Positions 2,765 through 59,271 of a DNA stretch of 64,000 nucleotides are shown here, in pieces. The notes under the pieces were generated by a model, which worked only from the letters and a program-made list of their open reading frames with translations, was not told the DNA's origin and did no database searches. The stretch lies in the sequence record MT932213.1; one strand, given 5' to 3'. Every line of letters starts with the position of its first letter. Within the stretch, counting starts at the first letter, position 1. This DNA comes from Escherichia phage VEc74. The position numbers were made by a program, and so were the translations under genes.

Positions 2765-3373
2765 TTATTTATTACGTGAAAAAGACTGTTCTATCAATTC
2801 TGGACACTTTCGTTCTATCCATTTTCTAGCTTTTTGTGGGCTTATACCTATTATTTTAGCAGCTTTACTAACCCATCCAAATTTAGAATAATCGATTTTA
2901 ACTAATTCTTCGTAAATTTCATCAGTTAAAATCTTTTCATTAATATTTACCAGTAAATGATATAATTTATTATCATTAGCAATTTTAATGAATCTTTTAT
3001 AGTTTCCGCCTTTACTTAAGCCTAATGAAGTAATTGCAGATGATATAGTAGCCGAATTTAATAGTGCGTTTAAAATTTCTTCATCACTAACATTATAACG
3101 CTTTTTATTATTTTTAATATTTTTACCAGCAAAAGTATCAGTTTGCGAATGGCAGTTTGGACATAATAATCTTAAATTTGATTTAAGATGATTTTTGTTA
3201 TTTCCATCAATATGGTCTAATTGCAGAACAATATGCTTATTTTGCCATTTTGAAATTTTACAAATTGCACACTCATATGGAAAAATATTTTCTTTTATTA
3301 TTTTGTCTTTCAGCTTTCCTGTACTAAAATTTGGATGTTTTCCTTCAAAAATTTCAGCTAATTTAGTATCCAT
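2765..3373 (-). CDS. HNH-family homing endonuclease, about 202 aa
   Basis: Motif LQLDHIDGNNKNHLKSNLRLLCPNCH (His-Asn-His with CxxC) plus upstream CxxC (YECAICK); stop codon 7 nt from the 5' end of tRNA-Leu; start trimmed from the TTG of ORF 2765..3397 to ATG (MDTKL). Confidence 0.75.
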   Translation of the reverse strand: MDTKLAEIFEGKHPNFSTGKLKDKIIKENIFPYECAICKISKWQNKHIVLQLDHIDGNNKNHLKSNLRLLCPNCHSQTDTFAGKNIKNNKKRYNVSDEEILNALLNSATISSAITSLGLSKGGNYKRFIKIANDNKLYHLLVNINEKILTDEIYEELVKIDYSKFGWVSKAAKIIGISPQKARKWIERKCPELIEQSFSRNK

Positions 3374-3472
3374 AATATGATTCCCAATTATTAACAAAGG
3401 CTCTCAAATAAGAACCCTTGATGATAGAGGGTATTAATCAGTGCGGTATGAGTTAATAATAACAAATAATTC

Positions 3473-4283: not shown

Positions 4284-4706
4284 TCAGCCTTCATCAACAA
4301 TAGTATGAGTATGGGCATTTACGATTTGCCACCAATCAAAGCGATTAGAACCATACATCGGTTTGTTTTCATTTTCTTTGATAATATCACGGAGTTCATC
4401 TTCGGTAGCGGCTTTCGCGATTAAATCAGCATATCCACCACGAGGATAATAATTATCACCTGCAAAAAGTAAAAAATTTGGTGTAATATTATTGAACTCT
4501 TCAAGAGTAATAACTGTTCCTGATGGTAGTTGAACAATCTCTACATAGTTATATCCTAATTTTTGAGCAGCATCTACTGCTTCAAGCAGAGTATCATGAG
4601 CCCGTCCTATTTGGCAATTTGGCTTTTTAGATGGATTAGCCTGATAATCCGCGTACACTTTATACATTCTATTCACCTTTAGAAATTTTATCCATAACGA
4701 TAGCAA
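4284..4706 (-). CDS. hypothetical protein, 140 aa (possibly 127 aa from MYKVYADYQ)
   Basis: Six-frame ORF; its 5' end overlaps ORF 4669..4854, so the internal ATG at 4665-4667 is a plausible true start. Confidence 0.55.
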   Translation of the reverse strand: MLSLWIKFLKVNRMYKVYADYQANPSKKPNCQIGRAHDTLLEAVDAAQKLGYNYVEIVQLPSGTVITLEEFNNITPNFLLFAGDNYYPRGGYADLIAKAATEDELRDIIKENENKPMYGSNRFDWWQIVNAHTHTIVDEG

Positions 4707-4854
4707 TTAAACCAATTAAAAATGCTACTACAAGTGAAAACACATTTTCTGCTGTAGTTAATAATCCGCATATAAATCCAACAAACATTGAAAAACTAAA
4801 AGCGGAAGCAGAAATTGCAATAGCAGCATTTCGAATTAATTCACAACGTTTCAT
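4669..4854 (-). CDS. small hydrophobic (membrane-like) protein, 61 aa
   Basis: Strongly hydrophobic sequence (AIAISASAFSFSMFVGFICGLL...LVVAFLIGLIAIV); preceded by the conserved leader and early promoter at 4883-4912. Confidence 0.5.
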   Translation of the reverse strand: MKRCELIRNAAIAISASAFSFSMFVGFICGLLTTAENVFSLVVAFLIGLIAIVMDKISKGE

Positions 4855-4882
4855 TTTATTCTCCTCAGTAGTTGATAGGGTA

Positions 4883-4912
4883 ATAGTATCACAACTAAAA
4901 CCCTATGTAAAC
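4883..4912 (-). promoter_or_regulatory. T4-type early promoter with stem-loop leader
   Basis: Minus strand reads GTTTAC, 18 nt, TACTAT, followed by leader ...ctatcaactactgaggagaataaaATG. Confidence 0.6.
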
Positions 4913-4915
4913 AAT

Positions 4916-5140
4916 TTATTCAACACCAGCGGCTTTCAAAAGTTTTTTAAGATTGGCAACACCTTGAGCAGAAAATGTGACCTTGCCACCTTTTTCACTG
5001 ATAGAACCAACCAATTTAGCAAGTTTATCATTAGGAATTTTTTTAAAATCAGACAATGTTCCATCAAAGGTTTTTGAAACAAAAGGCAGTTCGTCTTCGC
5101 GTCTTTTAGCTTCTACAATAAATTCTTTAGATGTTTTCAT
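4916..5140 (-). CDS. internal-protein-like (Ip) protein, 74 aa, N-terminal capsid-targeting sequence MKTSKEFIVE
   Basis: N-terminus matches the T4 internal-protein targeting consensus MKT(Y/F)(Q/K)EFI.E with Glu at a gp21 protease-type cleavage position; own early promoter. Confidence 0.7.
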   Translation of the reverse strand: MKTSKEFIVEAKRREDELPFVSKTFDGTLSDFKKIPNDKLAKLVGSISEKGGKVTFSAQGVANLKKLLKAAGVE

Positions 5141-5168
5141 TTTATTCTCCTCAGTAGTTGATAGGGTA

Positions 5169-5198
5169 ATAATATCACTACCCCATCTAAAAGTAAAC
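5169..5198 (-). promoter_or_regulatory. T4-type early promoter with stem-loop leader
   Basis: Minus strand reads GTTTAC, 18 nt, TATTAT; RBS GAGGAG before the ATG at 5140. Confidence 0.6.
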
Positions 5199-5208
5199 GG
5201 TTTATAAA

Positions 5209-5517
5209 CTATTTTATTCCGCGTGATGCAATTGTGTTCTGCCGTTTAACGCCAGTTTGTTTAAAGTCATGATTGTCGATTTGATCGGTACGAGCAACTC
5301 CGAATGATGATTTGATCTTAGCTTTAGATCCTTTAGTTATAGAAATAAACATCTCGGAAGCCCCTTTCTTAAAGTCCGAGGCGATTACTTCAACGCCGTT
5401 CTTAGCAAGTGACTTCAGAATTGCCTCCGCATACTCATCATCAAGACTCGCCTGAGTATTAATAACGAATGTCTTTGGCGCAGCCGCTTCATTGATAAAT
5501 TCTTTAAATGTTTTCAT
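5209..5517 (-). CDS. internal-protein-like (Ip) protein, 102 aa, N-terminus MKTFKEFINEAA
   Basis: Capsid-targeting-like N-terminus; divergent body; own early promoter. Confidence 0.7.
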   Translation of the reverse strand: MKTFKEFINEAAAPKTFVINTQASLDDEYAEAILKSLAKNGVEVIASDFKKGASEMFISITKGSKAKIKSSFGVARTDQIDNHDFKQTGVKRQNTIASRGIK

Positions 5518-5547
5518 TTTATTTTCCTAATTAATTTTGATGAGATA

Positions 5548-5577
5548 ATAGTATCACTACCCTATTTAAAAGTAAAC
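5548..5577 (-). promoter_or_regulatory. T4-type early promoter
   Basis: Minus strand reads GTTTAC, 18 nt, TACTAT; the -35 overlaps the stop codon of the upstream Ip-like gene. Confidence 0.6.
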
Positions 5578-5850
5578 TCATTTTAAATAAATTGCGTATT
5601 TTTTATAACCCGCTGACTCATGACGAAGACCCTTATCATTAGCAAAACGCTCAATGTTGTTAATTTGATTCTGATCAAGTTCAGAGATGTCAAACACGAA
5701 AAAGTTACGTTTGTTACCAACTGTTATATAGTCAGTTAAATCAATATCATATAGGTAATTGATGTCAGCAATCAAAGTCTTGACAGCTTTGCTAATTTTT
5801 ACTTTTTCGTTAAAAGCAGCTTCAGCAATAAATTCTTGATACGTTTTCAT
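5578..5850 (-). CDS. internal-protein-like (Ip) protein, 90 aa, N-terminus MKTYQEFIAEAAF
   Basis: ORF-track 5578..5910 extends into the promoter; true ATG at 5848-5850 follows the conserved leader; N-terminus matches the T4 IPI-type targeting sequence as I recall it. Confidence 0.7.
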   Translation of the reverse strand: MKTYQEFIAEAAFNEKVKISKAVKTLIADINYLYDIDLTDYITVGNKRNFFVFDISELDQNQINNIERFANDKGLRHESAGYKKYAIYLK

Positions 5851-5878
5851 TTTATTCTCCTCAGTAGTTGATAGGATA

Positions 5879-5908
5879 ATAGTATCACTACTAAAACCCC
5901 GTGTAAAC
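5879..5908 (-). promoter_or_regulatory. T4-type early promoter
   Basis: Minus strand reads GTTTAC, 18 nt, TACTAT. Confidence 0.6.
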
Positions 5909-5920
5909 AACTTTGTGAAA

Positions 5921-6178
5921 TTATTTTAAATCTTCTAATCGTTTCTTCATCTTAGAACCGTTCTTAGCGATTTCGCCTGCATCAGAGCATAATGCTAAAA
6001 GCGCTTTAACTTTAGTTTGGTCTCCTTTAAAAGATGAAGGATCAACAGCAGCAGCAAGTTCTTTAATACGAGAGAAAAGACGCTCAGCTTCAGCTAAAGC
6101 CATTCCAAGCTTTACTTCCATACCGTGGGAAGATTCAGTAATAGTAGTTTTTGTAGCAAACTCTTTGAAAGTTTTCAT
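5921..6178 (-). CDS. internal-protein-like (Ip) protein, 85 aa, N-terminus MKTFKEFATKTTITE
   Basis: Capsid-targeting-like N-terminus; own early promoter. Confidence 0.65.
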   Translation of the reverse strand: MKTFKEFATKTTITESSHGMEVKLGMALAEAERLFSRIKELAAAVDPSSFKGDQTKVKALLALCSDAGEIAKNGSKMKKRLEDLK

Positions 6179-6208
6179 TTTATTTTCCTAATTAATTTTG
6201 ATGAGGTA

Positions 6209-6238
6209 ATAGTATCACTACCTCATCAGCATGTAAAC
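6209..6238 (-). promoter_or_regulatory. T4-type early promoter with hairpin GATGAGGTA...TACCTCATC around the -10
   Basis: Minus strand reads GTTTAC, 18 nt, TACTAT; inverted repeat read directly. Confidence 0.6.
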
Positions 6239-6250
6239 AACTTTGTGAAA

Positions 6251-6935
<685 letters not shown>

Positions 6936-6936
<1 letters not shown>

Positions 6937-7661
6937 TATAGTACCTTTAGTGTATTTTTAATTTTAGAAAAAAGTTCTTCAAGAGAACCATCGTTTGTAA
7001 TTACTAAATCGCCATCACGAATTGGCAATCCAGCTTCTGTAATATGTGTATCATTGGATTTTTGACCAGGACGAACTACATGAATTACTGTAGCACCCAT
7101 CGCCCTAGCCGCATCCATTTCATGATCTTGACGGGTATCAGGAACGATATAATAATCATAACCTGAGTTAAATTTATCAAGATAATCTAAAGCAAATAAT
7201 TTTACCCAGTACATGCGGTCGAAGTTATTAACAATCAAATCCGTACCTAGGGCTTGCATCAGACGACGGACTGACCATTGATCTTCAATATTATTTATAA
7301 CGTCAATAATCTTGTTAAATGCTACGGAATTAACTGATTCTTGTCCTTCGTCATCAAAAACAAACACACCTTTAATTGGGCTTTTACCATTAAGATAGCA
7401 AAATGCTTGTTCCATAATGGTGATTACTTCTAATTTAGTCAGATTTAAATTAGTCTCACGATCATAGTCAATTCCTTCAAACTCTTTACGAGTTAAGCAA
7501 GGATAGTCAGTGTTTGCTGCAAATACTCCCCATGCATAAGCCAATGCATCCTTAATAGGACCAGCAAGTTGGTATTTAATTGCAGAATAATTGCTCATGA
7601 TAAAATCAGCAGTAGTATCTTTTCCACTACGCTTTACACCGCTTAAAAAGATTAGTTTCAT
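6936..7661 (-). CDS. 1: deoxynucleoside monophosphate kinase (gp1), 241 aa
   Basis: N-terminus MKLIFLSGVKRSGKDTTADF with P-loop GVKRSGKDT; start trimmed from ORF 6936..7700. Confidence 0.9.
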
Positions 7662-35362: not shown

Positions 35363-35787
35363 TGCTTCTGATCCCTGAAACTCATGAATTAGTTCTCGAG
35401 AATGTCGAAGCACTTATTCCTGAAGCACAGGGTCGCTTTGACGAATTGTCTTCTGCTTTAAATAAAGACGATATAAATACAATTGTCGAGAATATGCTTG
35501 ATGATGAAACTGATTTAGCGGTTGCATTAGCTTCTATTAATGAAAATATGCCGTTAAATGAATTCATCGTTAAACATGTTTCTGCCCGTGGTGAAATTAC
35601 TCGCACTAAAGATCGCAAAACCCGCGAACGAAATGCATTTCAAACCACTGGGCTGTCTAAAGCAAAACGTAGACAAATTGCTCGTAAAGCTACCAAAACG
35701 AAGATTGCCAATCCAGCAGGTCAATCTCGTGCTCAGCGTAAGCGTAAAAAAGCTCTTAAACGCCGTAAAGCATTAGGATTAAGCTAA
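35362..35787 (+). CDS. 68: prohead core protein gp68, 141 aa
   Basis: Size and position between 67 and 21. Confidence 0.9.
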
Positions 35788-36425
35788 TGAATGAACCCCA
35801 ATTACTAATTGAAACTTGGGGTCAACCTGGCGAAATTATTGATGGCGTACCAATGCTTGAATCTCATGATGGAAAAGACTTAGGTTTAAAACCGGGTTTA
35901 TACATCGAAGGAATATTCATGCAAGCGGAAGTCGTCAATAGAAATAAACGTCTTTATCCAAAACGTATATTAGAAAAAGCGGTAAAAGACTATATTAATG
36001 AGCAAGTTTTAACTAAACAAGCTCTCGGAGAATTAAATCATCCTCCACGCGCTAATGTTGACCCGATGCAAGCCGCTATCATTATAGAAGATATGTGGTG
36101 GAAAGGAAATGACGTATACGGACGAGCTCGTGTTATTGAAGGTGACCATGGTCCTGGAGATAAATTAGCAGCTAATATTCGTGCCGGATGGATTCCAGGA
36201 GTTTCTTCTCGTGGATTAGGTTCATTGACTGACACAAATAAAGGTTATCGTATCGTAAACGAAGGATTCAAATTAACTGTAGGTGTTGATGCAGTATGGG
36301 GTCCAAGTGCTCCAGATGCATGGGTAACTCCTAAGGAAATTACCGAATCACAGACGGCGGAAGCCGATACAAGTGCCGATGACGCCTATATGGCTCTCGC
36401 AGAGGCCATGAAAAAAGCGTTATAA
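35787..36425 (+). CDS. 21: prohead core protease gp21, 212 aa
   Basis: Size and order as in T4. Confidence 0.95.
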   Translation: MNEPQLLIETWGQPGEIIDGVPMLESHDGKDLGLKPGLYIEGIFMQAEVVNRNKRLYPKRILEKAVKDYINEQVLTKQALGELNHPPRANVDPMQAAIIIEDMWWKGNDVYGRARVIEGDHGPGDKLAANIRAGWIPGVSSRGLGSLTDTNKGYRIVNEGFKLTVGVDAVWGPSAPDAWVTPKEITESQTAEADTSADDAYMALAEAMKKAL

Positions 36426-36428
36426 ATA
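36421..36428 (+). promoter_or_regulatory. late promoter TATAAATA upstream of gene 22
   Basis: Exact consensus overlapping the gene 21 stop. Confidence 0.65.
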
Positions 36429-36455
36429 TTATTATCTAAACAACAGGACTACAAA

Positions 36456-37265
36456 ATGCTTAAAGAACAACTGATTGCCGAAGCGCAGAAAATTGATGCT
36501 TCCGTTGCTCTTGATAGTATTTTCGAATCAGTTAATATTTCTCCGGAAGCAAAAGAAACTTTCGGCACTGTATTCGAAGCTACCGTCAAGCAGCACGCCG
36601 TTAAATTAGCTGAATCTCATATCGCTAAAATTGCTGAAAGGGCAGAAGAAGAAGTAGAAAAAAATAAAGAAGAAGCCGAAGAAAAAGCTGAGAAGAAAAT
36701 CGCTGAGCAAGCTTCTAAATTCATTGACCATCTTGCGAAAGAATGGCTCGCTGAAAATAAATTAGCAGTTGATAAAGGCATCAAAGCCGAACTGTTTGAA
36801 TCCATGCTTGGTGGATTAAAAGAGCTCTTTGTTGAACACAACGTTGTTGTTCCAGAAGAATCAGTTGATGTTGTGGCTGAAATGGAAGAAGAGCTGCAAG
36901 AACATAAAGAAGAATCAGCTCGTCTGTTCGAAGAACTCAATATGCGCGACGCATATATTAATTATGTGCAGCGTGAAGTGGCATTGAGCGAAAGTACTAA
37001 AGATCTGACTGAGTCTCAAAAAGAAAAAGTCTCTGCTCTGGTCGAAGGTATGGATTATTCAGATGCATTCTCAAGTAAATTGAGTGCAATCGTAGAAATG
37101 GTGAAGAAATCTAATAAAGATGAAAGCACTATTACTGAGAGTATAAATACTCCTGATACTGAAGCAGCCGGACTGAATTTCGTCACTGAAGCTGTAGAAG
37201 ATAAAGCTGCACAGGGTGCAGAAGATATTGTAAGTGTATATGCGAAAGTCGCATCTCGTTTCTAA
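36456..37265 (+). CDS. 22: prohead core scaffold protein gp22, 269 aa
   Basis: Glu/Lys-rich coiled-coil; size and order as in T4. Confidence 0.95.
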   Translation: MLKEQLIAEAQKIDASVALDSIFESVNISPEAKETFGTVFEATVKQHAVKLAESHIAKIAERAEEEVEKNKEEAEEKAEKKIAEQASKFIDHLAKEWLAENKLAVDKGIKAELFESMLGGLKELFVEHNVVVPEESVDVVAEMEEELQEHKEESARLFEELNMRDAYINYVQREVALSESTKDLTESQKEKVSALVEGMDYSDAFSSKLSAIVEMVKKSNKDESTITESINTPDTEAAGLNFVTEAVEDKAAQGAEDIVSVYAKVASRF

Positions 37266-37283
37266 TTTTAAAGGTTAACACAA

Positions 37284-38849
37284 ATGACTATCAAAACTAA
37301 AGCTGAACTTTTGAACAAATGGAAGCCATTACTGGAAGGTGAAGGTTTACCGGAAATTGCTAATAGCAAACAAGCGATTATCGCTAAAATCTTTGAAAAC
37401 CAGGAAAAAGATTTCCAGACAGCTCCGGAATATAAAGACGAAAAAATTGCTCAGGCATTCGGTTCTTTCTTAACAGAAGCTGAAATCGGCGGTGACCACG
37501 GTTACAATGCTACTAACATCGCTGCAGGTCAGACTTCTGGCGCAGTAACTCAGATTGGCCCAGCTGTTATGGGTATGGTACGTCGTGCTATTCCTAACCT
37601 GATTGCTTTCGATATTTGTGGTGTTCAGCCGATGAACAGCCCGACTGGCCAGGTATTCGCACTGCGCGCAGTATATGGTAAAGATCCGGTGGCTGCCGGT
37701 GCTAAAGAAGCATTCCACCCAATGTATGGTCCAGATGCAATGTTCTCTGGTCAGGGTGCTGCTAAGAAATTCCCAGCTCTGGCTGCTAGCACGCAAACCG
37801 TTGTAGGTGATATCTATACTCACTTCTTCCAGGAAACTGGTACCGTGTATCTGCAAGCTTCCGCTGTAGTAACAATCGATGCTGGTGCGACTGATGCTGC
37901 TAAATTAGATGTCGAAGTTAAGAAACAAATGGAAGCTGGTGTACTGGTAGAAATCGCTGAAGGTATGGCTACTTCTATCGCTGAACTCCAGGAAGGTTTC
38001 AATGGTTCTACCGATAACCCATGGAATGAAATGGGCTTCCGTATCGATAAACAAGTTATCGAAGCTAAATCTCGCCAGCTGAAAGCTGCTTACTCTATTG
38101 AATTAGCACAAGACCTCCGCGCTGTTCACGGTATGGATGCTGATGCTGAACTGTCTGGTATTCTGGCTACAGAAATTATGCTGGAAATCAACCGTGAAGT
38201 TGTTGATTGGATTAACTACTCCGCTCAGGTTGGTAAATCTGGTATGACCCTGACTCCGGGTTCTAAAGCTGGTGTATTTGACTTCCAGGACCCAATCGAT
38301 ATTCGTGGTGCTCGCTGGGCAGGTGAATCCTTTAAAGCTCTGTTGTTCCAGATTGACAAAGAAGCAGTTGAAATTGCTCGTCAGACCGGTCGTGGTGAAG
38401 GTAACTTCATTATCGCTTCCCGTAACGTAGTTAACGTTCTGGCTTCAGTTGATACCGGCATTTCTTATGCTGCACAGGGTCTGGCTACCGGATTTAACAC
38501 TGATACTACCAAGTCAGTATTTGCTGGTGTTCTGGGTGGTAAATACCGCGTATATATCGACCAGTATGCTAAACAGGATTATTTCACTGTAGGTTATAAA
38601 GGTCCGAACGAAATGGATGCTGGTATTTACTATGCTCCATATGTAGCTCTGACTCCGCTGCGTGGTTCCGATCCGAAGAACTTCCAACCGGTAATGGGAT
38701 TCAAAACTCGTTACGGTATCGGTATCAACCCATTTGCAGAATCCGCTGCTCAGGCTCCGGCTTCTCGCATCCAGAGCGGTATGCCTTCTATTCTGAATAG
38801 CCTTGGTAAAAACGCTTACTTCCGCCGTGTATATGTTAAAGGTATCTAA
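37284..38849 (+). CDS. 23: major capsid protein gp23, 521 aa
   Basis: Size, high-expression codon usage, position after gene 22. Confidence 0.97.
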   Translation: MTIKTKAELLNKWKPLLEGEGLPEIANSKQAIIAKIFENQEKDFQTAPEYKDEKIAQAFGSFLTEAEIGGDHGYNATNIAAGQTSGAVTQIGPAVMGMVRRAIPNLIAFDICGVQPMNSPTGQVFALRAVYGKDPVAAGAKEAFHPMYGPDAMFSGQGAAKKFPALAASTQTVVGDIYTHFFQETGTVYLQASAVVTIDAGATDAAKLDVEVKKQMEAGVLVEIAEGMATSIAELQEGFNGSTDNPWNEMGFRIDKQVIEAKSRQLKAAYSIELAQDLRAVHGMDADAELSGILATEIMLEINREVVDWINYSAQVGKSGMTLTPGSKAGVFDFQDPIDIRGARWAGESFKALLFQIDKEAVEIARQTGRGEGNFIIASRNVVNVLASVDTGISYAAQGLATGFNTDTTKSVFAGVLGGKYRVYIDQYAKQDYFTVGYKGPNEMDAGIYYAPYVALTPLRGSDPKNFQPVMGFKTRYGIGINPFAESAAQAPASRIQSGMPSILNSLGKNAYFRRVYVKGI

Positions 38850-55119: not shown

Positions 55120-57177
55120 CTACATTTTGAACTTTTTAGACATTCCGTTGATGTTAACCAAAGAAGCTAAGATTTGAGAAACTTCGTTTTCCTCTTCTTT
55201 TGATTCTTCTACAAGGAATTGATTAAATCCAACCATTGGACGAACTTCACCAGTTTCCATTAGATGGTCGCCATCATATACTGATTCTTCTAATTGTTCA
55301 GAAGGAGGAACGATTGTACCTTCGATTAGATACTTGTTATAAGCCGTTTCTTTCATAAAGTACGTACTTACTTTATTAATCTTCAGTAAAATTCCACGAG
55401 GTAGAATAACTTCAGCTTCTGATGGAAATCCTGATAAATGACCTGGAACGATAACTTTGATTCGCTCAGCTCCTTTAATTACCATACCCACGCTAGTTTC
55501 AGCATCTTCATTGGCATATGTAGAATGACTACCCATATGCATCAAATGTTCTGCATCAACGGAACCTTCTCCTTCACCAGAAAATACTGCGCCGGAATCA
55601 TCTAGAGCCATATAGTTTTTACCATGCTCACCGAAGATATTTGGTTTAAGCGATGTCGATACGAAGTTCTTGAAATAGAACATTTTGTTTTCAATGTTAT
55701 GACGCAAAGTTTTAAAGGTAACTTCTTGTCCACGGTAAAGTGTAGTTCCTGGAGGAAGAACTGAACCTTTAGCGAATGCAGAATCCAACGTCTCGATGTG
55801 CTTAATAGCTCGTTCCATATATTCTTCACGGGTAGAATCTGGTTTACCCAAAAGGAACGAGTTCATTTCAACATATGAATCTGCACAATAATCTTCAATT
55901 ACATCAGACTCAGCCTGAGTCAGTCCTTTTGGAGTTACTTCAGTACTTGCATATTCATATGCCTGAGCAGCAGATTCATTAATCAATTTATAAATGCCAT
56001 TCATGACAAATTGAATAATAGCTGTCTTTTCATCTGGCGTAGCATTAGAACCTTTAACCAAATCATTGATAATTTTCTTAATAACATCAAAGCTATTAGA
56101 AATATTAATGTCAGCAAGATCGCTTAAAATTTTATCAGTTTTATAATCAAAGAATTCTTTATTCTTTAAATATTCTTGAGAACCTTGATATGTTATATCG
56201 CTTTGCAACTTGATAGATGGATCACGTAAACGTGCATGGGCTAATGCAATATGATTTCGGAAGTTTTCTAGTTCATAATCGCTAGATTTAAAACGAGAAG
56301 CACTTCTCATACCACCAATAGCTCCTTTGTTGAAGTTTGAACCAATCTGAATAACGCCAGAGTTCATTGGTCCTTCTGCTTTATATACCGGAACTTTAGA
56401 TTCAAACTCTTGATATTTCTTAGCAGCGAAGCTATCACCCTGAAGTGAAGCATCAACAGTAGAATATTGAGCTTGTGCTGCTAATCGACGACTAATTTTA
56501 GTTTTCTGAATAACAGCTTGATCCGTGCGCTTATCATTTTCTAAAGCAATAGAAGCAGCAACAGCGACAGCTTTAGGAACAGCATTACCTGTTTTAACGT
56601 CTACATAAACATCACCGACCTTTGATTCAACTTTTGTGAATAACTCAGTTGAAATAGGAGGTACACCTGGAATGTCTTCTAAATTGGCATTTTTACGGTA
56701 AACCATAATATATGCGTACTTTTTATCATAGTCCCAGATTTCCTTTAAAAGAACATATCGACCTGCTCCTTTAGTACGTACTAAACGGTCAGCAATAACT
56801 TGCATTTGACGAGCTGCGCCATTTGTTTTACTTTTTAGTACGCGGAATAAGCATGCGTCGATTTTATACTGCTTCATTGTTTGAAGAGCAGTATCAAAAA
56901 CCGCATTAATGACGCCAATTGGATTTCCACCCAAGTTTCTAAGCTTAACCAGCGATAATTTCTCGTTGACGCCTATCATTACGATATGCATCATTTTGTC
57001 GCCTGGCTTAACGTTTTTATTTGTATCACCGCCAGAGGTGTATGTACAAAATCTAAATCCAGGAAGCACACTTTCTTCGCCGGCTTGAATAGCAAAAATT
57101 TGTGGTATTTTATGCTTAGGATTTAAGTTAACAACCGGCGCCGAAGCGCCGTCAAATAATTCTGTAATAAGTTCCAT
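55120..57177 (-). CDS. Alt-family ADP-ribosyltransferase paralogue, 685 aa
   Basis: N-terminus MELITELFDGASAPVVNLNPKHKIPQIF parallels the adjacent copy; C-terminal R-S-ExE signature (YRGQE, FVSTSL, SEAEVILPRG). Confidence 0.85.
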   Translation of the reverse strand: MELITELFDGASAPVVNLNPKHKIPQIFAIQAGEESVLPGFRFCTYTSGGDTNKNVKPGDKMMHIVMIGVNEKLSLVKLRNLGGNPIGVINAVFDTALQTMKQYKIDACLFRVLKSKTNGAARQMQVIADRLVRTKGAGRYVLLKEIWDYDKKYAYIMVYRKNANLEDIPGVPPISTELFTKVESKVGDVYVDVKTGNAVPKAVAVAASIALENDKRTDQAVIQKTKISRRLAAQAQYSTVDASLQGDSFAAKKYQEFESKVPVYKAEGPMNSGVIQIGSNFNKGAIGGMRSASRFKSSDYELENFRNHIALAHARLRDPSIKLQSDITYQGSQEYLKNKEFFDYKTDKILSDLADINISNSFDVIKKIINDLVKGSNATPDEKTAIIQFVMNGIYKLINESAAQAYEYASTEVTPKGLTQAESDVIEDYCADSYVEMNSFLLGKPDSTREEYMERAIKHIETLDSAFAKGSVLPPGTTLYRGQEVTFKTLRHNIENKMFYFKNFVSTSLKPNIFGEHGKNYMALDDSGAVFSGEGEGSVDAEHLMHMGSHSTYANEDAETSVGMVIKGAERIKVIVPGHLSGFPSEAEVILPRGILLKINKVSTYFMKETAYNKYLIEGTIVPPSEQLEESVYDGDHLMETGEVRPMVGFNQFLVEESKEEENEVSQILASLVNINGMSKKFKM

Positions 57178-57180
57178 GAT

Positions 57181-59271
57181 TTATCCTTGAACGAACTTGT
57201 AAGGCATGTTTGTAATATCTATGCAAGACGCAATAATTCCAAGAGATGATTCTACTTTCTGTTTAACATTTGATGAAACAAATGATGCAAAGTCAACTCT
57301 ATCTTCTATATCACCTGTCATTGTAACCAATTCACCAGTTTCCATTAAATGGTCTCCGTCATAGATTACCGATTCAGTGAGTTCTTCTGTGGTCATAACT
57401 TCAGCTTGAATGAGTTTTGTATTATTAGACGTGGTTCCGTCATTATTAGAAGCATCAATTATTTTATTAACTTTGACCATCAATCCGCGCGGTAGAATAA
57501 CTTCAGCTTCTGTTGCTATTCCGAGACTTCCTGGATATACAACATTAACTTTATGAGCTCCATCAATTGCCCATCCTATTTGAACTTTAACGTATTCAGG
57601 ATTTTCTTTATACGCTCTTATTTCGTTTGGATTAATAGTTATTCCTTCTTCATTTTTATCAACTGTTAATTCATTACGAGCTTCTGGTTCTAAAAGACCA
57701 ATACCAGCATGTGTAATTCCAAAACGTCCAAAAATGATAGGAGTTAAAGAAGTAGATACAAAATTTCTGAAATAGAACACTTTATTTTTAACTAGTGCTT
57801 CGTATATAGGAGCAGTCATACTTTGAGCACGATAAACTGTAATGCCTTCCGGTATGCGGTCACCATTTTCAAAAGCTGAATCTAAATTATTTATAGCAGA
57901 TTCAATTTCTTTTTCACTCATTACATCATATCGTTCTGGATTGTAACGACCTAAAAGAAGATTATTAATGTCTGTATATCCTGAACCGCAATATTCTCTA
58001 ATGCCACGCTTTTGTGATGGAGTATATTTAGAACCATCACGGGCAATAGTAATATCAATCATTGGACCAGCACCAATTCCAGAAAAGCTATAAATCATTC
58101 GTTTGAGGAATTTAGTTTTTGCTGCATTCCAGGCATTTTTAGTTATTTCTCCCCAGACTTCATCTGGCTGCCCTTTACGAGTTTTATTATGTTTATCAAG
58201 CCAATTATCTTTATATTCTTCAAAGAGTTGATTAACAGCTGCTGCGTATTTCTCTAAACATTTTATTGAAGTAGTTGGTTCATTTTTAATCGCATTAAGA
58301 ATTACATCTTTAATTTTTTCAGAAACTTCATCAACCTCACTTTTTGAAAAGAATTTATATTCATAGTGAAGTTCATTTGCAGTTCCTTCAGCAATAATTT
58401 TTGCTGCCTTAGTTTTAGAAGCTAATGAATTAATTCCAAGCTTCATTTCTTCTGCTTCGGGAATTAAAGGAGCAGTAGCAGGTTTATTAAAATTAGCTGC
58501 GGTAGATTCATACTTCTGGAATAATTCACTTTCAAATCTAGAAGATTCTAATGATTGACTTTGCGCAATTGCTCTACGGGAAATTTTAACTTTAACGATT
58601 ACAGCTTGATCAGAACGTTTATCATTTTCTTGCGCAATAGATGCTGCAATTGCCTCATTTTTAGTTACTTGAGCTCCAGTATCTTTATTGATATAAACAT
58701 CACCGACCTTCGATTCAACTTTAGTAAAGAGTTCGGTACTAATTTCCGGAACTCCTGGAATGTCTTCTAGTGATACATTTTTGCGATGTATAAGAATATA
58801 TGCATACTTTTTATCATAATCCCAGAGTTCCTTAAGAAGGACGTATCTGCCACCTGAACGACTACGGATAAGTCTATCAGCAATAACTTGAATTTGTCGA
58901 GCTTGACCAGCAGTTTTAGACTTAAGAATACGGAGCATACAAGCATCAATTTTATATTGACGCATTGTTTGCATTGCAACAGTAAAAACTGAATTGATAT
59001 AATTAATTGGACTTGGACCAAGACCTTTCAATTTAGCAATTGAACCTTTAGCAGTTAATGTAAAAGGAACAATATGCATCATTTTATCGCCCATCTTTAA
59101 ATCACGATTAGTATCACCTCCAGATGTATAGGTACATAAACGAAAGCCTGGTTGTTCAATTGCATCATCAACGTGAACTGAAAAAATTTGCGGTATTTTC
59201 TTCTTTGGATTTAAGTTTGTAATCGGAAGAGTAGTATCTTCGTCAAATAATTCTGTAATGAGTTCCATCAT
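57181..59271 (-). CDS. alt: Alt ADP-ribosyltransferase (injected head protein), 696 aa
   Basis: N-terminus MELITELFDEDTTLPITNLNPKKKIPQIF; R-S-ExE signature (YRAQS, FVSTSL, ATEAEVILPRG); late promoter upstream. Confidence 0.85.
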   Translation of the reverse strand: MMELITELFDEDTTLPITNLNPKKKIPQIFSVHVDDAIEQPGFRLCTYTSGGDTNRDLKMGDKMMHIVPFTLTAKGSIAKLKGLGPSPINYINSVFTVAMQTMRQYKIDACMLRILKSKTAGQARQIQVIADRLIRSRSGGRYVLLKELWDYDKKYAYILIHRKNVSLEDIPGVPEISTELFTKVESKVGDVYINKDTGAQVTKNEAIAASIAQENDKRSDQAVIVKVKISRRAIAQSQSLESSRFESELFQKYESTAANFNKPATAPLIPEAEEMKLGINSLASKTKAAKIIAEGTANELHYEYKFFSKSEVDEVSEKIKDVILNAIKNEPTTSIKCLEKYAAAVNQLFEEYKDNWLDKHNKTRKGQPDEVWGEITKNAWNAAKTKFLKRMIYSFSGIGAGPMIDITIARDGSKYTPSQKRGIREYCGSGYTDINNLLLGRYNPERYDVMSEKEIESAINNLDSAFENGDRIPEGITVYRAQSMTAPIYEALVKNKVFYFRNFVSTSLTPIIFGRFGITHAGIGLLEPEARNELTVDKNEEGITINPNEIRAYKENPEYVKVQIGWAIDGAHKVNVVYPGSLGIATEAEVILPRGLMVKVNKIIDASNNDGTTSNNTKLIQAEVMTTEELTESVIYDGDHLMETGELVTMTGDIEDRVDFASFVSSNVKQKVESSLGIIASCIDITNMPYKFVQG

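Follow-up and report, generated by a model that had tools for sequence, protein, structure and literature searches.

The ipI locus of Escherichia phage VEc74: four internal-protein genes behind repeated early-promoter cassettes

The four small genes arrayed at 4916-6178 of the window (the whole 64 kb stretch of DNA that was analysed) are ip5, ip9, ip7 and ip8, internal-protein genes that already have names, and together they make up the ipI locus of a T-even phage (Tequatrovirus). Each unit of the array is composed of a T4-type early promoter, an inverted repeat that overlaps it, a short leader, approximately 10-15 targeting codons and a small basic body that is unrelated to the others. We consider it likely that these units are ipI-locus cassettes whose products are packaged in the head, trimmed by the gp21 protease and injected as nuclease inhibitors, and that the units are shuffled by means of their repeats. 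Packaging, cleavage, injection and nuclease inhibition by the four proteins are proposed by analogy with IPI, IPII and IPIII of T4. The principle, the locus, the four genes and the shuffling mechanism have all been published earlier. An initial reading of the window, made from the letters alone and referred to here as the sequence-only reading, had implied that the array was new. This did not hold, since a deposition of 1994 already contains exactly this set of genes, and the ip4-10 set that was screened in 2025 against several GmrSD enzymes includes them. What the window contributes is a further naturally occurring cassette combination of a known kind. The small addition made here is that the Ip9 domain was found in two further contexts, untagged in a siphophage and as part of a large Kuttervirus protein.

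The ip locus and its promoter cassettes

The four consecutive minus-strand ORFs that the sequence-only reading had picked out were confirmed, with lengths of 85 aa (ip5, 5921-6178), 90 aa (ip9, 5578-5850), 102 aa (ip7, 5209-5517) and 74 aa (ip8, 4916-5140). The start of ip9 was taken as the ATG behind the Shine-Dalgarno sequence, which gives the 90-aa product; the mechanical ORF list instead starts it at a TTG (5910). The upstream boundary of the locus is 57B (6251-6709, minus strand), a member of the Acb1 anti-CBASS family (Pfam PF23474, E 2.7e-60), and the downstream boundary is trna.4 (4669-4854, minus strand), which encodes a 61-aa hydrophobic protein without a targeting sequence. The gene order 1-57A-57B-(ip)-trna.4-trna.3 is syntenic with T4 and RB32, and by synteny with T4, RB32 and UFV-AREG1 the position between 57B and trna.4 is one of the two polymorphic ip loci.

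A block of about 70 bp is repeated upstream of each ip gene. It is present in five copies with 60-91% mutual identity, at this locus only, and its core (GTTTAC-N14-GTGATAYTAT) has exactly five matches in the 64 kb, always on the minus strand, at 6238, 5908, 5577, 5198 and 4912. The sequence-only reading had assigned to each of the four genes a private GTTTAC/TACTAT early promoter and a near-identical leader. Each gene does have its own promoter, but there are five cassettes rather than four, the fifth of which drives trna.4, and instead of a single leader there are two classes. The class A leader (...TCATCAAAATTAATTAGGAAAATAAAATG) is found upstream of ip5 and ip7 and is almost identical to the upstream region of T4 ipI, while the class B leader (...CTATCAACTACTGAGGAGAATAAAATG) is found upstream of ip9, ip8 and trna.4.

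All five cassettes lie on the minus strand. Cassette 1 (6179-6250), which precedes ip5, has GTTTAC at 6238-6233, the -10 element TACTAT at 6214-6209 with a 13-bp inverted repeat across it, and a class A leader with a Shine-Dalgarno sequence; as a whole it is nearly identical to the sequence upstream of T4 ipI. In cassette 2 (5851-5920, ip9), GTTTAC at 5908-5903 and a -10 element ending at 5879 are accompanied by a stem-loop and a class B leader with a GAGGAG Shine-Dalgarno sequence. Cassette 3 (5518-5577, ip7) consists of GTTTAC at 5577-5572, TACTAT at 5553-5548, a weak stem-loop and a class A leader, and its promoter scores just under the threshold of a generic promoter scanner. Cassette 4 (5141-5208, ip8) has GTTTAC at 5198-5193, a TATTAT -10 element ending at 5169, a stem-loop and a class B leader, and cassette 5 (4855-4915, trna.4) has the same promoter core, a stem-loop and again a class B leader. 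An inverted repeat lies across the -10 element in all five. The predicted hairpins have energies of -17.4, -10.3, -4.4, -16.1 and -14.2 kcal/mol, with a z-score of -2.9 or lower in three of the five cassettes. The sequence-only reading had made no mention of the inverted repeat at the -10 element.

Since the repeated block starts inside the preceding gene, 57B and ip5 end alike. The last codons and the stop codon of 57B fall within the block, and the two genes agree from their final codons (...DLK) over the stop codon to 20 nt behind it. No copy of the TATAAATA late-promoter motif was found inside the array, the nearest minus-strand copies being at 7299 and 4242. The absence of this motif means that the supply of Ips for late assembly is not explained by the sequence alone.

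Targeting sequences and mature bodies

The N-termini of the four proteins are MKTFKEFATKTTITE (Ip5), MKTYQEFIAE (Ip9), MKTFKEFINE (Ip7) and MKTSKEFIVE (Ip8). In the six-frame translation of the window the pattern MKT..EF has exactly four matches, all of which are the starts of these genes. The sequence-only reading had taken the shared MKT(F/Y/S)(K/Q)EF...E start for a capsid-targeting sequence of the T4 type and had proposed an alignment with T4 IPI, IPII and IPIII as a check. In that alignment M1, K2, T3, E6 and F7 are unchanged in all seven proteins, which, together with the presence of a gp21-type (I/L)xE site in each of the four, supports the assignment. The site is IAE, INE and IVE at positions 8-10 of Ip9, Ip7 and Ip8, respectively, and ITE at positions 13-15 of Ip5. 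The propeptide of Ip9 is the same as that of T4 IPII and IPIII, and the propeptide of Ip5 is of the longer IPI type that ends in ITE. Mutational work on IPIII has linked positions 4 and 7 to targeting and positions 8 and 10 to processing by gp21; three of these four positions (F7, I8 and E10) are retained in Ip9, Ip7 and Ip8. Position 4 of Ip8 is Ser and not aromatic and, since this position is reported to matter for targeting, this counts against the packaging of Ip8.

The window also encodes the machinery to which such a signal would be addressed. The prohead protease gene 21 (35787-36425, plus strand; Pfam Peptidase_S77, E 1.5e-111) is followed by the scaffold gene 22 (T4_CASP) and the capsid gene 23 (Gp23), the trio spanning 35787-38849, and removal of the propeptides would be the task of this gp21.

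The repeat is continuous over the promoter, the leader and some 30 nt at the beginning of each gene. The common N-terminus could thus be a by-product of repeated DNA that is kept for recombination or expression, and the proteins could be early cytoplasmic products that are never injected. The early-type promoters of all the genes, together with the lack of a late-promoter motif noted above, are consistent with this, as is the report that IPIII, which is required for infecting ECOR17, is still active if a version that lacks the targeting sequence is made in the host cytoplasm. However, trna.4 has the same cassette and begins differently (MKRCEL...), which means that the repeat does not force the motif on the gene behind it. 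Distant relatives of Ip9 hold the pattern at the protein level with other residues (MKFNEFLTEA and MKSFKEYLTES), and the start of Ip8 differs in DNA between the window and phage RB15 (MKTSKEFIVE and MKTYQKFIVE, respectively), yet F7, I8 and E10 are kept. Furthermore, a tag of just the first ten IPIII residues is sufficient to package foreign proteins. We therefore regard it as unlikely that the motif is a mere artefact of the DNA repeat, and the larger proposal, of cytoplasmic proteins that are never injected, as very improbable.

Behind the propeptides the four proteins have no recognisable sequence similarity. When the propeptides were removed, pairwise blastp among the four gave no significant match (best E = 0.064), bearing out the earlier statement that the bodies are mutually unrelated, and blastp of the mature parts against T4 IPI or IPII gave no significant match either. 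Each protein instead matches a PHROG family of its own that is annotated as an internal head or virion protein: Ip5 matches phrog_3499 ("internal head protein", E 1e-49), Ip9 phrog_7673 (E 4e-55), Ip7 phrog_2667 (E 2e-41) and Ip8 phrog_8765 ("internal virion protein", E 8e-23). By tblastn the mature body of Ip5 was found in 494 phage records, that of Ip7 in 283, that of Ip9 in 193 and that of Ip8 in 107, many of them at 95% identity or above; the hosts of these phages include Escherichia, Shigella, Klebsiella, Enterobacter, Salmonella, Citrobacter and Yersinia. The Pfam search returned sub-threshold noise only, with no family for any of the four, and PDB sequence searches returned nothing meaningful for Ip5, Ip9, Ip7 or Ip8. 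The AlphaFold model of Ip9 (pLDDT 75) has the order alpha-beta-beta-alpha-beta-beta, and the model of Ip7 has a beta-alpha-beta-beta-alpha core with a C-terminal tail that is conserved yet modelled at low confidence.

Proposed function and cassette shuffling

By analogy with T4, the N-terminal targeting sequence would bind the scaffolding core so that the protein becomes part of the prohead. The gp21 protease would then cut after the (I/L)xE site, at E10 in Ip9, Ip7 and Ip8 and, as predicted from its longer propeptide, at E15 in Ip5, to leave mature proteins of 64-92 residues. These would stay with the packaged DNA, enter the cell together with it and be able to act at once, ahead of phage gene expression. 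Inside the cell they may serve as binding inhibitors of the host nucleases that attack modified T-even DNA, each perhaps specific for one enzyme subtype. Since injected proteins precede phage gene expression, they would be the first answer to host nucleases and would help to set the host range, a role that is relevant to the selection and engineering of therapeutic T4-like phages.

The idea that the four are injected anti-defence effectors, as the sequence-only reading proposed, matches the published view, which has been demonstrated for T4 Ip1, Ip2 and Ip3 and is extended to the four proteins themselves by analogy. IPI* inhibits the GmrSD enzyme of E. coli CT596, and T4 IPII and IPIII inhibit those of ECOR21 and ECOR17, respectively (Silas et al. 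2025; Srikant et al. 2022). In the work of Silas et al. (2025), the GmrSD enzyme that was inhibited differed between Ip1, Ip2 and Ip3, and there was no cross-protection among the three. Since all three characterised Ips act on that family, the type IV restriction enzymes of the GmrSD family are the most likely targets of the four proteins as well. In the same study, ip4-10 gave no reproducible inhibition of the further active GmrSD variants, and signs of inhibition that were first seen with ip7 (CLS_011) and with ip8 (CLS_018-019) were lost on repetition.

This last result would also suit proteins that have no specific host target at all. The four could be generic basic proteins of the head core, or counterions of the DNA, with a part in assembly or packing, and their diversity could reflect weak constraint. 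The mature parts are indeed basic, with a pI of 8.2-9.8, as are IPI* and IPII. Each T4 internal protein is present at ~300 copies and binds DNA when the salt concentration is low, lysines of internal proteins touch DNA phosphates in the head, and the loss of IPIII slows head assembly. We nevertheless think this explanation rather improbable. Specific enzyme targets have been found for three of three T4 internal proteins, and the conservation of each body as its own family in 107-494 records points to purifying selection on specific folds. An untagged Ip9 body encoded in the early region of a siphophage could not have a head-core role there, and the presence or absence of whole cassettes among near-identical phages is better suited to host-range genes.

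The siphophage in question is CR01 (Guernseyvirinae), which encodes a stand-alone Ip9 homologue of 72 aa without a propeptide (50% identity; phrog_7673, E 3e-27). Its gene heads a run of small genes that is divergent from the genes beside the replicative helicase. In Kuttervirus, an Ip9-related domain forms the C-terminal part of a protein of ~755-860 aa, and the gene for the 755-aa protein adjoins putative structural genes. Word-indexed homologue searches found close T4-like relatives only, and an exhaustive HMMER search with the Ip9 body against 1.84 billion representative proteins found just eight relatives, some with the variant propeptides quoted above and others of 66-71 aa without a propeptide. 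Since the Ip9 body is also found untagged in other phage families, it fits a view of the Ips as two-part proteins, in which a targeting tag precedes a self-contained effector domain. A further step would be to regard the Ip bodies as portable effector domains that are delivered in several ways, with one or more of the four inhibiting a defence other than GmrSD. The failure of ip4-10 against all the GmrSD variants that were assayed raises this possibility, which we put forward only tentatively and hold to be somewhat doubtful; with a non-GmrSD target, injected proteins would have a role that goes further than type IV restriction.

Whatever their targets, the genes appear to move as cassettes. 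In the proposed mechanism the repeated promoter and leader blocks act as patches of homology, through which recombination could swap, add or delete cassettes between phages, and close relatives would then hold different gene sets at the same site. T4 has ipI there, T2 has ip5-ip7, RB32 and RB33 have ip5-ip9-ip7 and UFV-AREG1 has ipI-ip9-ip7-ip8. KIT06 has a 95-aa Ip, two ORFs of ip9 and ip7 length and a 42-aa ORF in the position of ip8, and phiE142 (Carettavirus) has two other Ips. At least 80% of the locus is covered in six of the 812 matching phage records. Phage OLB35 encodes a hybrid protein with the front of Ip7 and the back of Ip9.

In RB15, the stretch from 57B to trna.4 has an identical set and order of ip genes, with 97-99% DNA identity in these genes (ip5 99.2%, ip9 98.9%, ip7 99.0% and ip8 96.9%, the last beyond the first 30 nt). 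Although the genes around them are this similar, cassettes 4 and 5 reach just 75-78% identity (78% for cassette 4), the leaders before ip8 and trna.4 having been replaced in the window by class B, as is found upstream of ip9. Near-identical genes combined with diverged ip8 and trna.4 cassettes support shuffling through the repeats, which is thus in part shown by these comparisons and in part inferred from them.

Comparison with known systems

As credited by later papers that cite it, the study of Repoila et al. (EMBO J 1994) described two polymorphic ip loci and named at least ten Ips that are recognised by a common N-terminal signal, and it proposed that the ~70-bp promoter-containing repeats on both sides may confine shuffling to the ip loci; according to these papers it already put forward a host-range role for the Ips. 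By 2010 more than 30 Ip variants were known (Arbiol et al. 2010).

The array in the window is a composite of early promoter and stem-loop repeated around accessory genes, and in this it resembles the PeSL cassettes of RB49 and phi1, in which a promoter and a stem-loop likewise surround small accessory genes that are shuffled as modules (Arbiol et al. 2010; Comeau et al. 2014). The two are analogues and not homologues according to Arbiol et al. (2010), who describe the IP-associated elements as based on the T4 early promoter with weaker, AT-rich stems. The PeSL consensus of RB49 and phi1 is a sigma-70-like promoter with a GGGG...CCCC terminator stem. In the cassettes of the array the stem overlaps the -10 element and has no T-run after it.

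Phage P1 likewise has head-packaged anti-restriction proteins that are injected with the DNA, namely the Dar proteins DarA, DarB and Hdf. The Dar proteins are large, belong to an unrelated phage with another packaging hierarchy and do not come in a shuffling cassette array.

T4 IPII and IPIII are closer in kind, being injected, dispensable and subtype-specific, and they have the same propeptide as Ip9. Their genes lie outside the window, in the neighbourhood of denV and e, where the second ip locus is situated, and their bodies are unrelated to those of the four proteins. The virion proteome of a Klebsiella T4-like phage includes "internal virion proteins"; since the genes for these adjoin the lysozyme gene, they probably belong to that other ip locus.

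Finally, the mature parts of the four proteins have no sequence similarity to T4 IPI*. With T4 IPI/IPI* the genes nevertheless have in common the same genomic slot, a nearly identical upstream cassette and the same targeting logic, and their products are of similar size and charge.

A hybrid, possible allelic types and relatives of the Ip bodies

The matches to the Ip5 body (the part that follows the propeptide) in the phage collection were bimodal in identity, with 268 records reaching at least 90%, 226 below 60% and none between. Since the distribution is split in this way, it suggests that the Ip5 body exists as two discrete allelic types rather than as a product of gradual divergence. A 77-aa protein of Escherichia phage OLB35 (P0017), annotated as "ip7 protein", is a natural Ip7/Ip9 hybrid of which the front half aligns with Ip7 and the last ~35 residues with Ip9. 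Recombination has therefore taken place inside the Ip bodies too, and not in the promoter-leader cassettes alone.

The mature domain of Ip9 was also found in two other settings. In the Guernseyvirinae siphophage CR01 it forms a stand-alone gene of 72 aa that lacks the capsid-targeting sequence (L005:2501-2719), and in Kuttervirus aagejoakim it is the C-terminal domain of a 755-aa protein (L007:467-2734) whose gene is adjoined by putative structural genes. In Ip7, the structure prediction is of low confidence for the C-terminal ~30 residues (residues 73-102; window 5209-5300, minus strand; pLDDT below 50), but residues 83-102 are almost invariant, even in homologues down to 67% overall identity. 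This C-terminal region could be a conserved binding tail.

Leader classes and trna.4

The gene trna.4 (4669-4854, minus strand), which encodes a 61-aa hydrophobic protein, has the same cassette of promoter, stem-loop and leader as the ip genes but lacks the targeting sequence. Its leader (4855-4874) belongs to class B together with those of ip9 (5851-5870) and ip8 (5141-5160), all on the minus strand. The Shine-Dalgarno sequence of the class B leaders is GAGGAG and thus includes GGAG, at which the RegB endoribonuclease of T4 cleaves according to the T4 annotation, while that of the class A leaders (ip5 and ip7) is AGGAAA. Since the RegB motif is present in class B and AGGAAA in class A, the leader sequences raise the idea that the survival time of the early mRNA might differ between the two classes.

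Neighbouring and distant genes in comparison with T4

Directly upstream of the ip array, 57B (6251-6709, minus strand) matches the Acb1 anti-CBASS family in Pfam (PF23474, E 2.7e-60), although it is labelled "RNA ligase" in RefSeq records. The array thus has a known counter-defence gene as its immediate neighbour. Alt is a further protein that is packaged and injected by T4, and the window carries two tandem Alt-like ADP-ribosyltransferase genes (55120-57177 and 57181-59271, minus strand) that are 41% identical to each other over their full length.

The tRNA cluster and an accompanying ORF region occupy 2004-2758 and 2765-3397 on the minus strand. No tRNA-Gln gene was found beside tRNA-Leu in the window; in its place is an ORF of at most 210 aa, for which Pfam gave no match. 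Whereas T4 has eight tRNA genes, Gln and Ile among them, the window has nine (Arg, Asn, Tyr, Met-type CAT, Thr, Ser, Pro, Gly and Leu).
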